A program made the translations under genes and the position numbers. This document shows, one piece after another, positions 33 through 5,293 of a DNA stretch of 5,345 nucleotides. The number at the start of each line of letters is the position of its first letter. Position 1 is the first letter of the stretch. Under the pieces are notes generated by a model that was not told the origin of the DNA, made no database searches, and saw nothing but the letters and a program-made list of their open reading frames with translations. The DNA is from Naegleria gruberi (lineage: Eukaryota), in the NCBI GenBank assembly GCA_000004985.1, contig GG739164.1. One strand, written 5' to 3'.

Positions 33-427
33 TTACCAACAACATCCACTACCTCCTTCACTTTCGTTTGGTTCACTAGTTGAAATATTTACATTATCAG
101 TTGGCTTATTTCTGACTGGTTCAGTACTTTCGAGAAGATTAGTTGTGTTGAGTATTTGATAGACAACTTCCTCAAATGCCTTATCAACATTTTCCTTTGT
201 TTTGGCTGATGTTTCAATATAGACCATATTATTGGATTTGGCAAAGTTTTGAGCGTCTTGGAGTGAAACTTTTCTTTCTTCCTTCAAATCAATCTTGTTT
301 CCAATCAATAATTTTACACATTCCTCAAATGTTGAATATAAATCACATTCCTTAAGCCAATTCTTAATATTATTAAATGTTTCCTCTCTAGTAACATCAT
401 AAACAAGAATTATTCCATGAGCATTTC
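33..427 (-). CDS. RAB18: Rab18-like exon 8 (terminal exon: (R)[92 protein letters not shown]...GGSGCCW, stop TAA at 33-35)
   Basis: The ORF track reports 33..308, but its initial 'M' is a TTG Leu codon. The reading frame stays open upstream to 427, where the acceptor TTTAG sits (plus 428-429). It contains the G4 NKxD motif (NKID), G5 ETSAK, the Rab YYR.A.G motif and a C-terminal di-cysteine prenylation motif. Confidence 0.9.
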
Positions 428-467
428 CTAAATATTTTGATTAAAATATAAATCTCAAAATACATAC

Positions 468-491
468 TATAATAACTTGATGTAAGAGTTC
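468..491 (-). CDS. RAB18: Rab18-like exon 7, 24-nt micro-exon ((R)TLTSSYY + first base of Arg)
   Basis: Reverse complement is GAACTCTTACATCAAGTTATTATA. The upstream intron carries TTCTAAC (branch-point-like) 12 nt before the acceptor AAG (plus 492-493). The donor is GTATGT (plus 462-467). The result is [17 protein letters not shown]. Confidence 0.8.
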
Positions 492-538
492 CTTAAATTT
501 TGTTAGAATTGATCAGTGAATTTTGGAAGCAAACTTAC

Positions 539-553
539 TAAATCTCTCTTGAC
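539..553 (-). CDS. RAB18: Rab18-like exon 6, 15-nt micro-exon ((G)QERF + first base of Arg)
   Basis: Reverse complement is GTCAAGAGAGATTTA. It is flanked by the acceptor AG (plus 554-555) and the donor GTAAGT (plus 533-538). It completes DTAG|QERF exactly. Confidence 0.8.
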
Positions 554-599
554 CTAATTCAATTCTTTAGAGAATTCTGTTTCTTATTTATACACTTAC

Positions 600-615
600 C
601 TGCAGTATCAAATAT
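600..615 (-). CDS. RAB18: Rab18-like exon 5, 16-nt micro-exon (IFDTA + first base of Gly)
   Basis: Reverse complement is ATATTTGATACTGCAG. It is preceded by AG (plus 616-617), with an in-frame TAA further upstream, and followed by the donor GTAAGT (plus 594-599). The split Gly codon G|GT is completed by exon 6, giving DTAGQERF. Confidence 0.8.
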
Positions 616-660
616 CTTTATCAATTATTTAGAAAAATTCAAATCTATTATTTTACCTAC

Positions 661-706
661 AGTCAATTTTACTTTCTTCCTATTTACATTCATAAATTTA
701 ACCTTG
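661..706 (-). CDS. RAB18: Rab18-like exon 4 ((F)[15 protein letters not shown])
   Basis: Reverse complement is C AAG GTT AAA TTT ATG AAT GTA AAT AGG AAG AAA GTA AAA TTG ACT. The acceptor AG is plus 707-708 and the donor is GTAGGT (plus 655-660 acctac). It supplies exactly 15 residues between TIGVDF and IFDTAG, matching the Rab spacing (K.K......K..KL.I.DTAG). Confidence 0.65.
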
Positions 707-770
707 CTATTTATAAAATCGTCATCATCATATTAAATCCAAATTCAATAATTATTCATTAAAAACATAC

Positions 771-841
771 AAATCCACACCAATTGTTGGCGACATTTGT
801 TCTTTAAACTCATCCTCAGTAAATTGTGTAATAATACTACT
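771..841 (-). CDS. RAB18: Rab18-like exon 3 ([23 protein letters not shown] + 2 nt of Phe codon)
   Basis: Reverse complement is AGTAGTATTATTACACAATTTACTGAGGATGAGTTTAAAGAACAAATGTCGCCAACAATTGGTGTGGATTT, followed by the donor GTATGT (plus 765-770 acatac). The switch-I TIGVD(F) motif is present, and the phase-2 end is completed to TTC by the first base of exon 4. Confidence 0.8.
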
Positions 842-884
842 CTATCGGAATTAATTATCTTCATCAATCTTTAAAAAAACAAAC

Positions 885-911
885 CTTTCCTGTGGCACTA
901 TCACCAACAAG
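885..911 (-). CDS. RAB18: Rab18-like exon 2, 27-nt micro-exon ([9 protein letters not shown]; P-loop first half)
   Basis: Reverse complement is CTTGTTGGTGATAGTGCCACAGGAAAG. The minus-strand acceptor AG is plus 912-913 (ct), and in-frame TAA TAG stops lie immediately upstream in that frame. The donor GTTTGT follows at plus 879-884 (acaaac). Joining to exon 3 gives GDSATGKSS, the G1/P-loop GxxxxGKS. Confidence 0.75.
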
Positions 912-950
912 CTATTAAATCCCGAACCGAACCAAACCAAAATAATCGAT

Positions 951-968
951 TCATCATCATCATCGTCG
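951..968. repeat. Trinucleotide microsatellite (TCA)4(TCG)2 inside Rab18 intron 1
   Basis: Direct reading: tcatcatcatcatcgtcg. Confidence 0.6.
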
Positions 969-1000
969 TTGCAAATACTCTAATAAATTGGAAAACTCAC

Positions 1001-1039
1001 CACAAGTTTGAAATTATGATCAAAAGCCTTTGAAGTCAT
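1001..1039 (-). CDS. RAB18: Rab18-like exon 1 ([13 protein letters not shown]), phase 0 end, donor GTGAGT on minus strand (plus 995-1000 actcac)
   Basis: Reverse complement of 1001-1039 is ATGACTTCAAAGGCTTTTGATCATAATTTCAAACTTGTG. An A-rich context precedes the ATG, with an in-frame stop 7 codons upstream. FKLV joins exon 2 LVGDS to give the Rab N-terminal FKLVLVGDS pattern. Confidence 0.75.
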
Positions 1040-1188: not shown

Positions 1189-2259
1189 TCAATTCAAATT
1201 GCAACCAATTGCCTTGTTTGTTTGCACCTTAATTGAATGTAAAATTGGAGTTAATTTGGCAGTTAACTTGGATGGAACCTTTCCATTGGCCTTTTTTGAT
1301 TCATCCATCAATAATACCAAGTCAACTGGAATTGCAACTATTGGAATGGCACTTTTAATCATCAATCCTGTTAAACTCATAATACCTGTGTGGCCATTAG
1401 TCAATCCATCAGATTTATCCAAATCTTGATGCTTGTGGCCTGTCAGAGATTCAACAAATTGAAGAACGTTGACATTTCTATTACCAATTTTCATAACTCT
1501 ACTATCAATGTATGGATCAGTCAACCTTTGTTCATAAATCTTTCTAATCATTGCATTTACTGCTTGAGTATCCCTTTGTAAGAGTTCTTGAATGGACTTG
1601 GCTGATTTCTTGGCATGTTTCCATTCAGCAATTGATGCAGCAACTGTTGCTGTTGTTCCCACACCAACACAACCAATACCAGCACCTGAGGCAATTAATG
1701 AAACACCAAAAGTGAAAGGAGCAGCTACGATACCACCAAGAATCAAGGAAGCTCCAACAATATTGGTTTTTGTACCTTTCACTTTGGTCTTTGCTGTACT
1801 TTGTTGTTTCTTTTCTAATGATTGGATTAAATTGTCCAGCATTTTAATGATTTCCAATCGTTGGACAAGCCACTCATTTGCAGATTGTTCAATGACAGCA
1901 AATCCACAATTTGGATTATCAAAATTGGTACTTTCAAATGTTGGGGTTTGAGGAAGAATTACATTGGTCTGGAAATTTGTTTGTTGACCACCTTTTTCAT
2001 AGCTACTATTACTAGTTGTGGATTGAATTGGTTTAAAGTTGTTGGTTAGTTGTAATGGTTGGGGAGTTATTGGTTGTTGTACAAATTGAGGATTAGAAGT
2101 GATAACTGGAAAATATTGAGCGTTTGGTTGTGGATACATGTATTGAGGAGGATTAGGTGGGTAAAGTTGATATTCTGGTGGTTGATAATTCACTCCAGGT
2201 TCTGTAATGTTTGGTTGAGTAGAGAAATGTGGATATTGAGGAGAAACTTGTTGATGCAT
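1189..2259 (-). CDS. ApoL (apolipoprotein L)-like membrane protein, 356 aa, single exon. It has an N-terminal P/Q/Y-rich low-complexity region with PPxY motifs, a central ~45-residue Gly/Ala-rich hydrophobic hairpin, and a C-terminal amphipathic region
   Basis: The 1071-nt ORF is intact. The ATG at 2257-2259 is the first after an in-frame stop 10 codons upstream. The segments KVKGTKTNIVGASLILGGIVAAPFTFGVSLIASGAGIGCVGVGTTATVAASIAEWKHAKK and PVDLVLLMDESKKANGKVPS align, from memory, with human APOL1 [42 protein letters not shown]...TSSTMDYGKK and LDVVYLVYESKHLHEGAKSE. The N-terminus contains PPEY and PPQY. Confidence 0.8.
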   Translation of the reverse strand: MHQQVSPQYPHFSTQPNITEPGVNYQPPEYQLYPPNPPQYMYPQPNAQYFPVITSNPQFVQQPITPQPLQLTNNFKPIQSTTSNSSYEKGGQQTNFQTNVILPQTPTFESTNFDNPNCGFAVIEQSANEWLVQRLEIIKMLDNLIQSLEKKQQSTAKTKVKGTKTNIVGASLILGGIVAAPFTFGVSLIASGAGIGCVGVGTTATVAASIAEWKHAKKSAKSIQELLQRDTQAVNAMIRKIYEQRLTDPYIDSRVMKIGNRNVNVLQFVESLTGHKHQDLDKSDGLTNGHTGIMSLTGLMIKSAIPIVAIPVDLVLLMDESKKANGKVPSKLTAKLTPILHSIKVQTNKAIGCNLN

Positions 2260-2769: not shown

Positions 2770-3817
2770 NNNNNNNNNNNNNNNNNNNNNNNNNNNNNNN
2801 NNNNNNNNNNNNNNNNNNNNNNNNNNNNNNNNNNNNNNNNNNNNNNNNNNNNNNNNNNNNNNNNNNNNNNNNNNNNNNNNNNNNNNNNNNNNNNNNNNNN
2901 NNNNNNNNNNNNNNNNNNNNNNNNNNNNNNNNNNNNNNNNNNNNNNNNNNNNNNNNNNNNNNNNNNNNNNNNNNNNNNNNNNNNNNNNNNNNNNNNNNNN
3001 NNNNNNNNNNNNNNNNNNNNNNNNNNNNNNNNNNNNNNNNNNNNNNNNNNNNNNNNNNNNNNNNNNNNNNNNNNNNNNNNNNNNNNNNNNNNNNNNNNNN
3101 NNNNNNNNNNNNNNNNNNNNNNNNNNNNNNNNNNNNNNNNNNNNNNNNNNNNNNNNNNNNNNNNNNNNNNNNNNNNNNNNNNNNNNNNNNNNNNNNNNNN
3201 NNNNNNNNNNNNNNNNNNNNNNNNNNNNNNNNNNNNNNNNNNNNNNNNNNNNNNNNNNNNNNNNNNNNNNNNNNNNNNNNNNNNNNNNNNNNNNNNNNNN
3301 NNNNNNNNNNNNNNNNNNNNNNNNNNNNNNNNNNNNNNNNNNNNNNNNNNNNNNNNNNNNNNNNNNNNNNNNNNNNNNNNNNNNNNNNNNNNNNNNNNNN
3401 NNNNNNNNNNNNNNNNNNNNNNNNNNNNNNNNNNNNNNNNNNNNNNNNNNNNNNNNNNNNNNNNNNNNNNNNNNNNNNNNNNNNNNNNNNNNNNNNNNNN
3501 NNNNNNNNNNNNNNNNNNNNNNNNNNNNNNNNNNNNNNNNNNNNNNNNNNNNNNNNNNNNNNNNNNNNNNNNNNNNNNNNNNNNNNNNNNNNNNNNNNNN
3601 NNNNNNNNNNNNNNNNNNNNNNNNNNNNNNNNNNNNNNNNNNNNNNNNNNNNNNNNNNNNNNNNNNNNNNNNNNNNNNNNNNNNNNNNNNNNNNNNNNNN
3701 NNNNNNNNNNNNNNNNNNNNNNNNNNNNNNNNNNNNNNNNNNNNNNNNNNNNNNNNNNNNNNNNNNNNNNNNNNNNNNNNNNNNNNNNNNNNNNNNNNNN
3801 NNNNNNNNNNNNNNNNN
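2770..3817. other. Assembly gap, 1,048 consecutive N
   Basis: Direct count: 51 N on the line starting at 2761, 16 full lines of 60, and 37 N on the line starting at 3781. Confidence 1.
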
Positions 3818-3971
3818 ATCAGTTCAATCAAATTGAATATTGTAGATTTTCAAATCATAAACAGATGACAACTTTTGATTGAGCATTTTGATTCTGAAAT
3901 TAAATCACTTCTTTGTTGAAATTTCCAGCTTGTGATTTATTTTCCAATCTCCAATTTTTTTGAGTTTGACG

Positions 3972-4480
3972 ATGAAAAAAATACCTCAACAAGACCATCC
4001 TCCGGATACGGAAGGGAGTAATTTGCTTGCTGACAGGATTTTTGTGTTAGAGAGAGCAATTGAAACCTACCAAAAGGAAAACAATAATCTCCGTGACTAT
4101 CTTCAACAACTTGTAAATATATGTAATGGTCACCCGTTATTGAATAATAATAATAATAATCCCATCAAACCTGTAAATAATAATCTGATCAATACCCAAC
4201 CATCAGAAAATGAAAATCTATTTATTACTAGAAATCCAGTAAATGTTAGAAATCTACCAACTAGTAGAAATTTAATTAATGGTGGAAATTTCTTGACTGA
4301 GACAGTTCAAATATGCGATAGTAATCCTAAAAATAGAACTGTCAGTTATGCTGATATTACAAGATTAGCTCCTATTAAAGCTCAGCCATCTATTAAGAAA
4401 ACAATAGCAAAACAAAAATCAACAACTAATAAGATGAAAAGAAATATGGCAACTAATACTAGACCTAACAAACGTAAATC
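3972..4480 (+). CDS. 5' part of an N-rich uncharacterised protein gene (MKKIPQQDHPPDTEGSNLLADRIFVLERAIETYQKENNNLRDYLQQL...NNNNNN...KRKS), interrupted at 4480/4481 by a transposon. In the present sequence the frame reads 4 more codons into the element (RVY*) and stops at 4491-4493
   Basis: The first ATG is at 3972; the track start at 3960 is TTG, and an in-frame TGA lies at 3933-3935. There is a predicted coiled-coil-like N-terminus and a poly-Asn run. The frame continues after the element, see 4903..5293. Confidence 0.6.
4143..4160 (+). repeat. (AAT)6 microsatellite encoding poly-Asn within the CDS
   Basis: Direct reading: aataataataataataat. Confidence 0.9.
4473..4480. repeat. Target-site duplication, left copy (CGTAAATC)
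   Basis: An identical 8-mer sits immediately outside both terminal inverted repeats (4473-4480 and 4895-4902). Confidence 0.8.
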
Positions 4481-4500
4481 GAGAGTATATTAATATCCAA
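4481..4500. repeat. Left terminal inverted repeat of MITE
   Basis: gagagtatattaatatccaa, a perfect reverse complement of 4875-4894. Confidence 0.85.
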
Positions 4501-4874
4501 TATCTATCCCAAACCGCTTTTTTTGGATATGGCTTTTTAAAAAGGGCAATCTGGCTAAATTTTTACGGGCTTGGCTTTTTGGATAAATCTTGGATTGGAT
4601 AATATTATTTGAAAATGTGTCGTGTTTGAGCAATTGTCAACAAGGAATGCAGGCAAATCACTCTACGAATATTTATTAGATTATTATCAATACTAATTGC
4701 AATAAATCAACAATTTTTCGATATAAATTTGGAATAATTTATTTTTGAAATAATTCATTTTTTAGTGGAAATTTCTTGACTTATTTTTGGATTTAGGTTT
4801 TGGCTTTTTGGTTCAATTTGGCTTTTTGCCGATTTTTTATTCACCTATATCCAAAAACTGGTTTGGGATGGATT

Positions 4875-4894
4875 TTGGATATTAATATACTCTC
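4875..4894. repeat. Right terminal inverted repeat of MITE
   Basis: ttggatattaatatactctc. Confidence 0.85.
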
Positions 4895-4902
4895 CGTAAA
4901 TC
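4895..4902. repeat. Target-site duplication, right copy (CGTAAATC)
   Basis: Identical to 4473-4480. Confidence 0.8.
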
Positions 4903-5293
4903 TAATTACAATCTTAATCAAATAATTAATGTAATTTGCTACAAAGATGTTACTAACGAATTTGTTGAACAAATTACAGACCTACTCGGTGACTCTGTAA
5001 TCATTAGAGTTAATCGATACTGTAATAATATTATTAATGTAATTTGCCCTGATGAAACCAGTTATAAAGAGTGTTTCAATCAATTAGTGCAAGGAAGTCA
5101 TGGAGGAAAATTCATATTAGAATGCTTTCCATCTCCAGCAATCTTTAATCCTAAACCTTTAGCACTTTCACATACTACTTCCAGTAAAACTACTCACCTT
5201 AAAATGCTAGAAAACATTATTAGCAAATATATATTGGAAGATAATATTTCTGTTGAGGACTCTACACTAACTATTCTCATAACCAATTTATAA
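4903..5293 (+). CDS. 3' part of the same N-rich gene (NYNLNQIINVICYKDVTNEFVEQITDLLGDSVIIRVNRYCNNIINVICPDETSYKECFNQLVQGSHGGKFILECFPSPAIFNPKPLALSHTTSSKTTHLKMLENIISKYILEDNISVEDSTLTILITNL*). It is in frame with 3972..4480 once the element and one TSD copy (422 bp) are removed
   Basis: I translated 4901 onward by hand. There is no stop for 130 codons, up to TAA at 5291-5293. The frame (positions congruent to 2 mod 3) is exactly the one predicted from the upstream frame 0 plus a 422-bp insertion. The ORF track saw only its distal half, 5087..5293. Confidence 0.55.

Follow-up and report, generated by a model that had tools for sequence, protein, structure and literature searches.

Research on the apolipoprotein L (ApoL) family has been almost confined to primates and mammals, where its members are known for trypanosome lysis, APOL1 kidney disease, the killing of cytosolic bacteria by APOL3 and the rupture of phagosomes by APOL7C. 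A contig of Naegleria gruberi (GenBank assembly GCA_000004985.1, contig GG739164.1), analysed here over its complete length of 5,345 bp and referred to below as the window, raises the question of whether such a protein is also made by a single-celled phagocyte and, if so, what it may do there. An earlier note on this DNA had read an open reading frame (ORF) on the minus strand as an ApoL-like pore-forming domain fused to an N-terminus rich in Pro, Gln and Tyr with two PPxY motifs, and had suggested regulation by ubiquitin ligases or by the endosomal sorting complex required for transport (ESCRT). Here, we show by profile comparisons that this ORF encodes a divergent ApoL-family protein, homologous to the animal ApoLs over the whole domain, and we consider its probable mode of action, the meaning of its tail and its possible origins.

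A divergent ApoL-family gene in Naegleria gruberi

The ORF runs from ATG to TAA without interruption, and its product is identical (100% over 100% of the length) to the annotated 'predicted protein [Naegleria gruberi]' P0001 in NCBI and UniProt. As the public gene model coincides with the unbroken ORF, the gene consists of a single exon, and it is a real nuclear gene of N. gruberi (Table 1).

With hmmscan, the search proposed in the earlier note, the protein matched Pfam PF05461 at 32.9 bits (E = 6.1e-8), above the gathering score of 25.9. An alignment of Naegleria sequences only, compared by hhalign in a profile-profile manner with named animal ApoLs (lizard, fish, mollusc and starfish), gave a probability of 99.5% (E = 1.1e-22) over 222 columns, which take in the amphipathic helices and the C-terminal PxD..LV..SK block. 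In addition, an exhaustive HMMER search with a 244-position profile, built from the trimmed domain of five Naegleria-type homologs, retrieved 1001 cluster representatives at E<=1e-3, of which 108 remained at E<=1e-10; many could be aligned over nearly the full profile. PF05461 was matched by 91 of 95 sampled relatives at E<=1e-4 and by 93 at E<=0.05, and a 24-sequence family profile recovered proteins named 'apolipoprotein L3-like' by NCBI (lizard, anchovy and Labeo) as well as mollusc ApoLs. A protein of Acrasis kona, P0021, is intermediate, matching Pfam ApoL positions 63-292 at 89 bits. By Pfam, profile search and hhalign alike, the similarity is far beyond chance, at an identity to animal ApoLs of only ~20-25%, and the family membership claimed from the letters holds for a domain of ~240 aa that is homologous to vertebrate and mollusc ApoLs throughout. 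The PF05461 assignment as such is already precomputed for the N. gruberi protein in public resources. Several motifs that the earlier note had likened to APOL1 can be read in the protein, namely KVKGTKTNIVG at residues 159-169, AAPFTxGxSL as AAPFTFGVSL at residues 179-188, and the Gly-rich hairpin. Two others had been given less exactly: 'SSI.EW.K' is close to, and not identical with, ASIAEWKH at residues 208-215, and the C-terminal ESK block is present as VDLVLLMDESKKANGKVPSK at residues 312-331, with the spacing given after ESK off by one.

The protein is not alone. Homologs of the same architecture are encoded by N. fowleri (two paralogs, FDP41_001341 and FDP41_005038, one of which sits on a nuclear contig of 358 kb, flanked by protoglobin and Piwi genes), N. 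lovaniensis (C9374_008068), Acrasis kona (KAL0490335) and two environmental Naegleria-like contigs. When 24 labelled domains were placed in a neighbour-joining tree, a clade with 99% bootstrap support united the six Naegleria proteins with Acrasis KAL0490335 and one protein of an unidentified eukaryote, apart from the animal ApoLs and from the Acrasis proteins in which ApoL is fused to RING; the Naegleria sequences fall into at least two or three paralog lineages. The tree is distance-based, its sequences were aligned to a hidden Markov model that had been built in part from them, and a partial catfish sequence is misplaced in it; only strongly supported clades are used here. The phylogenetic interest that had been attached to this gene is borne out by its host, a heterolobosean and not an animal. 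All proteins of this clade are unnamed ('hypothetical'). They share one layout, a Pro-rich or P/Q/Y-rich N-terminal extension followed by the ApoL domain, and domain identity is 44-66% for the Naegleria members, whereas the tails range from 104 to 217 aa and vary in sequence and in the motifs that they carry, with PPxY confined to the N. gruberi protein and its nearest relative. Two metagenomic eukaryotic contigs of 19-32 kb (L005, JGI 3300062526, and L006, JGI 3300037860) also encode ApoL-domain proteins, next to plainly eukaryotic genes (Nup192, DHHC, PIP5K, PPR and poly(A) polymerase), and P0009, from one of these contigs, groups with Acrasis inside the heterolobosean clade. Comparison of the neighbours of the Naegleria homologs revealed no conserved synteny or gene cluster, as all of them differ.

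An alternative explanation would be that the likeness to ApoL is that of a generic glycine-zipper hairpin, or that the gene is an animal contaminant or was recently acquired from an animal. The direct Pfam match falls mostly on the hairpin with a modest score, and hydrophobic segments rich in Gly and Ala can inflate such scores. However, the Pfam, profile-search and profile-profile evidence, with a match that goes well beyond the hairpin and the Acrasis intermediate P0021, rules out the generic hairpin that the earlier note had itself considered. Contamination or recent transfer from animals is likewise unlikely, because the heterolobosean proteins form a separate, well-supported clade; moreover, the DNA of the window is AT-rich and of Naegleria type, a multi-intron Rab gene adjoins the ApoL gene, and homologs are carried by Naegleria contigs of 358 kb and 492 kb. 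We therefore regard this explanation in either form as highly improbable. The origin of the gene may instead be ancient vertical descent with losses, or ancient horizontal transfer. As the algal virus TsV-N1 has an ORF with an ApoL domain (PMC4517135), viruses could serve as vehicles.

Fusions found among the relatives hint at how the domain is used. RING E3 domains are joined to ApoL in 4 of the 95 relatives, including Acrasis kona P0021 (KAL0483500) and P0027 (KAL0477050) and the lamprey Petromyzon marinus P0097 (XP_032837184), which has a TRIM-like RING; a caspase domain and a ricin-type lectin domain occur in one relative each. Such domain company is typical of immune or cell-death effectors, and ApoL seems to be used as an effector module that is combined with ubiquitin, cell-death and recognition domains. 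Haliotis rubra P0094 is also listed among the relatives with extra domains fused to ApoL, and P0046, an unnamed representative of 1092 aa, contains the ApoL domain three times in tandem, every copy having a hairpin and a C-terminal LVxDSKEL-type block of its own.

The ApoL domain and its probable mode of action

Table 1. Coordinates, within the window, of the N. gruberi ApoL gene and of the features of its product.
Feature	Position	Strand	Basis or remark
Complete single-exon coding sequence, ApoL-family protein	1189..2259	-	356 codons plus TAA; identity to P0001
ApoL domain, residues 115-356	1192..1917	-	hhalign, profile search, PF05461 in relatives, AlphaFold2
Stretch matched directly by Pfam ApoL (PF05461), residues 136-241	1537..1854	-	profile positions 66-171 of 298
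Uncharged Gly-zipper transmembrane helical hairpin (predicted), residues 165-211	1627..1767	-	hydropathy, invariant columns; counterpart of the APOL1 membrane-insertion domain
Second hydrophobic segment, residues 295-320	1300..1377	-	hydropathy; counterpart of the APOL1 pore-lining region
C-terminal amphipathic helix (predicted), residues 329-351	1207..1275	-	both AlphaFold2 models; position of the APOL1 leucine-zipper helix
P/Q/Y/N/T-rich low-complexity region, predicted disordered, residues 1-114	1918..2259	-	composition, hydropathy, AlphaFold2
PPEY, first PPxY, residues 27-30	2170..2181	-	read from sequence
PPQY, second PPxY, residues 37-40	2140..2151	-	read from sequence
MYP, residues 41-43	2131..2139	-	only short tail motif common to 5 of 6 Naegleria homologs

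The AlphaFold2 model of the domain (24-sequence alignment; predicted template-modelling score 0.66, mean predicted local distance difference test (pLDDT) 71) is an elongated helical bundle, in which two very long helices (2-65 and 73-133 in domain numbering) meet at a Gly-rich hydrophobic tip and are accompanied by a small beta-hairpin and three to four shorter helices. Two segments are membrane-competent by hydropathy. The first, within the region (residues ~160-215) for which the earlier note had proposed a transmembrane and amphipathic-helix prediction, is hydrophobic and free of charge, as K164 and E212 enclose no D, E, K, R or H; G162, T183, G185, S187 and G194, which lie in or next to the hairpin, are invariant in 24 of 24 family members. 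The second contains D313 (codon 1321-1323), at a position where 23 of the 24 have Asp, followed by E320-S321-K322 in ...VDLVLLMDESKK. The predicted helix behind it, at the place of the leucine-zipper helix on which the open channel of APOL1 depends, aligns with the C-terminal helix of animal ApoLs and shows a heptad-like spacing of L332, L336, I339, I343 and I350; it is short (~3 heptads), contains Pro338 and is only partly regular in its heptad hydrophobics.

These features can be compared with the human proteins, in which the first two transmembrane helices constitute the membrane-insertion domain and the fourth transmembrane segment is the pore-lining region (PMC8358165). Where the hairpin carries acidic residues, as in APOL1 and APOL2, insertion depends on acid; without them, APOL3, APOL4 and APOL5 insert at neutral pH and positive voltage, and APOL6, which likewise lacks them, destabilised the bilayer (PMC8358165). 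D348 is shared by all of APOL1-6, and pH gating and cation selectivity are under its control along with that of Y351 and E355 (PMC8358165). Since the D-x6-E-S-K spacing from D313 to E320 fits that of D348 to E355 in the numbering of that study, we infer that D313 is the equivalent of APOL1 D348.

Taken together, we propose that the protein would act as a cytosolic ApoL pore former with an uncharged insertion hairpin, a pore-lining D313 and a disordered regulatory tail, a reading to which we assign a probability of about 0.6. Judging from the missing signal peptide, the conserved residues and the work on human APOLs, it would be synthesised in the cytosol and take the form of a soluble, elongated bundle of helices. 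Its Gly-zipper hairpin would insert into a target membrane, and acid pH would not be needed for this because the hairpin lacks acidic residues, as in APOL3-6. With D313 and E320, the second hydrophobic segment could then provide a cation-selective, pH-sensitive conductance, and at higher dose the protein may disrupt membranes and leave a detergent-like lesion, as intracellular human APOLs do. More speculatively, its role would most likely be cell-autonomous: it might permeabilise the membranes of phagosomes, endolysosomes or pathogens, or take part in regulated cell death or in the remodelling of organelles, and the disordered tail might be a lineage-specific module for regulation or targeting. 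Naegleria is a bacterivorous phagocyte, and as the family is in addition fused to RING, caspase and lectin domains, a role in defence, phagosome permeabilisation or cell death is our best guess.

Several points weigh against this proposal. The direct Pfam match is limited and modest in score, and PF05461 positions 1 to ~62, which are part of the N-terminal helical bundle of vertebrates, are absent; AlphaFold2 confidence is low at the hairpin tip and at domain residues 164-197, ahead of the pore-lining segment; the equivalence of D313 and D348 rests on family alignment columns and published residue numbering; and some APOLs act through detergent-like disruption or membrane trafficking, not through discrete channels. 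With regard to the missing N-terminal positions, many invertebrate and protist members with a near full-length PF05461 match also begin at positions 61-69, and therefore this part of the helical bundle is not universal in the family.

Instead of forming pores, the protein could act as a hairpin-anchored scaffold or in membrane trafficking, for example as a tether at the endoplasmic reticulum, Golgi or lipid droplets, with the tail serving condensation or recruitment. The human intracellular APOLs have been proposed to control phosphatidylinositol 4-phosphate, actomyosin and membrane fission and fusion, not lysis (PMC7891394), the composition of the tail is like that of prion-like or annexin-A7/A11-type low-complexity regions, and hydropathy gives no signal peptide. 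A simple anchor, however, hardly explains why a near-invariant Asp and the ESK block are kept across ~1000 relatives, and APOL1-4 all give cation conductances in bilayers (PMC8358165). We thus consider a purely anchoring role rather unlikely and favour that of a pore former.

The disordered tail and the PPxY motifs

The first 114 residues consist of 18% P, 17% Q, 7% Y, 10% N and 11% T, with 6% charged residues, and hydropathy revealed no hydrophobic stretch among them that would fit a signal peptide; in the full-length AlphaFold2 model, residues 1-116 have a pLDDT of ~30 and no secondary structure. Among 85 scorable relatives, a long extension of this kind (>=60 aa and >=30% P+Q+Y) is confined to the heterolobosean clade, and the median extension in the family is 20 aa. 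The tail is therefore a lineage-specific addition, in agreement with the earlier statement that it is no feature of canonical ApoLs. It evolves fast and cannot be aligned between paralogs: for the five Naegleria-type homologs of the first search, mean column identity is 68% in the domain, whereas the tails are unalignable. The product is a divergent, lineage-specific representative of a known family, marked by an unusual tail that is predicted to be disordered.

Both PPxY motifs named in the earlier note, PPEY27 and PPQY37, are present in this predicted-disordered tail, and as ligands of WW domains they could place a permeabilising domain under Nedd4/Rsp5-type or ESCRT control. The closest relative, P0002, likewise carries two PPQY motifs, two PPxY exceed what composition predicts for the N. 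gruberi tail (composition-preserving shuffles contain 0.22 on average, and 1.9% reach two or more), and the RING E3-ApoL fusions of Acrasis kona and lamprey make ubiquitin-linked control of an ApoL domain plausible in general. However, among the six Naegleria N-termini compared, PPxY is absent from P0003, P0004, P0005 and P0006, and the count in P0002 is reached by 6.8% of shuffles and is not significant, so that the excess over expectation is mild and marginal. A motif scan found no P[ST]AP in the tail, and late-domain motifs of the YPxL/ALIX type were also considered and rejected, as YPVL and YPFL occur only in P0003/P0004. In a survey of HECT ligases with N. gruberi among the species covered, Nedd4-like (C2-WW-HECT) enzymes were restricted to Opisthokonta and Apusozoa, and Excavata were characterised as HECT-poor (PMC3673628). 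Given the poor conservation of the motifs, their marginal excess over shuffles and this survey, the specific Nedd4/Rsp5 reading is weak, and we hold control of this kind to be improbable. A more general coupling of ApoL domains to ubiquitin ligases receives some support from the RING-ApoL fusions in Acrasis kona and lampreys.

If the tail carries a conserved linear motif, the candidate would be MYP and not PPxY. In an unbiased motif count, its presence in five of the six Naegleria N-termini, those of P0001-P0005 (QYMYPQP, QGMYPQQ, SSMYPVLPP, SSMYPFLPP and YSMYPQP) was matched by 0 of 1000 composition-preserving shuffles, and common ancestry may add to this sharing. In addition, five of the six homologs have a Thr-rich tract just upstream of the ApoL domain.

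Genomic setting, deeper kinship and comparison with known systems

Downstream of the ApoL gene and on the same strand lies a gene for a small GTPase of the Ras/Rab family (33..1039), which has several short AT-rich introns and whose last exon matches Pfam Ras positions 109-161; its product ends in ...GGSGCCW, an unusual C-terminus for a prenylated Rab. On the promoter side, the readable sequence upstream of the ApoL gene stops at 2769, where an assembly gap, a run of N of 1048 positions (2770-3817), begins and separates it from the next gene. This is a plus-strand ORF (3960..5293) with no assigned function that is broken by a small inverted-repeat element. The element, which resembles a miniature inverted-repeat transposable element, is 414 bp long (4481-4894, within 4473-4902, plus strand) and has imperfect terminal inverted repeats of 69 nt, of which the first 20 nt are identical (GAGAGTATATTAATATCCAA); a perfect 8-bp direct repeat, CGTAAATC, stands on both sides of it, the length of a hAT-like target-site duplication. 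When the element and one copy of the repeat (422 bp) are taken out, ORF 3960-4493 joins in frame with the ORF ending at 5293 to give 303 uninterrupted codons with no Pfam match; the element is either a recent insertion into a gene or is now spliced out as an intron.

The similarity of the ApoL domain may reach beyond eukaryotes. Its best sequence matches among solved structures are NheB-like 6tao and Vibrio cholerae MakE (6w08), B-type subunits of tripartite alpha-pore-forming toxins, and the match grows with the breadth of the profile, from E = 0.05 for the single protein to 0.009 for the Naegleria profile and 5.7e-7 for the 24-sequence profile (32.5 bits over ~113 positions), with which AhlB and SmhB score at E = 0.26 and 0.88, respectively. 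The NCBIfam MakE model gave E = 2.2e-5 at 23.7 bits, far below its cut-off of 360. Weak matches to Pfam SseC, a type-III translocon family, occur in 18 of the 95 relatives and to plant DUF677 in 6, and no such recurrence is seen for the Pfam HBL and ClyA models. Foldseek was not significant, the fold matches being no better than those of generic helical bundles, and neither a colicin nor a Bcl-2 fold was among the top structural matches, so that the colicin- or BH3-like character that the earlier note gave to ApoL proteins was not borne out by the fold. In summary, the profile matches suggest a deeper kinship between ApoL and bacterial helical pore formers, to which the hydrophobic hairpin could contribute inflated scores, and there may be a superfamily of helical-hairpin pore formers across bacteria, plants, protists and animals. 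We advance only tentatively, and consider it on balance unlikely, that the heterolobosean proteins represent an ancient branch of ApoL which pre-dates the metazoans, and that the family is the eukaryotic arm of a superfamily of ClyA/MakE/NheB-type, and perhaps SseC-type, proteins. If true, ApoL membrane attack would be an old module of cell-autonomous defence or cell death in amoebae and not a vertebrate innovation, and it would have been wired repeatedly to ubiquitin ligases (through RING fusions), caspases and lectins.

The reviews consulted here on APOL evolution or function treat the origins of the family only within primates or mammals (PMC7891394, PMC12248677). We found no literature on ApoL-family proteins in Naegleria, Acrasis or other protists, the Acrasis genome paper does not mention ApoL, and no literature linking the ApoL and ClyA families was found. 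An ApoL clade in Naegleria, including the brain-eating N. fowleri, and in Acrasis implies that the domain pre-dates or escapes the animal lineage, and a unicellular phagocyte offers a simple setting in which to study the ancestral job of ApoL. Sequences as divergent as these also show which residues are indispensable, namely the G/T/G/S positions of the hairpin and the pore-lining Asp, and the strengthening match to MakE/NheB-type profiles provides a testable hypothesis for the structural ancestry that ApoLs may have.

Among known systems, the tail recalls that of PY-motif membrane proteins and of other proteins with P/Q/Y-rich tails, such as the Ndfip/LITAF-type Nedd4 adaptors, annexin A7/A11 and ALIX. 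In the former, as in the Naegleria protein, a Pro-rich, Tyr-containing N-terminus with PPxY stands beside a membrane-inserting hairpin domain. However, the Naegleria protein has no sequence homology to them and its PPxY motifs are not kept among its homologs. The cognate Nedd4-type ligase family, too, is not reported in Excavata (PMC3673628).

The elongated helical bundle with a hydrophobic hairpin 'head' that is predicted for the protein may resemble that of MakE, NheB, AhlB and SmhB of the ClyA superfamily, and the hairpin motif is near-identical (GGIVAAPFTFGVSL in ApoL and GVVLAPFTLGGSL in the toxins), whereas the toxins are secreted, multi-component and bacterial. The human intracellular proteins APOL3-APOL6 belong to the same PF05461 domain family, lack a signal peptide and likewise have a transmembrane hairpin without acidic residues, followed by the shared pore-lining Asp and an ESK-type block; a C-terminal amphipathic helix is predicted for the Naegleria protein at the corresponding position. 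In contrast to them, the Naegleria protein, known here from its sequence, comes from a free-living heterolobosean amoeboflagellate, and it lacks the first ~60 positions of the Pfam domain and has a disordered P/Q/Y-rich tail of 114 aa in their place.

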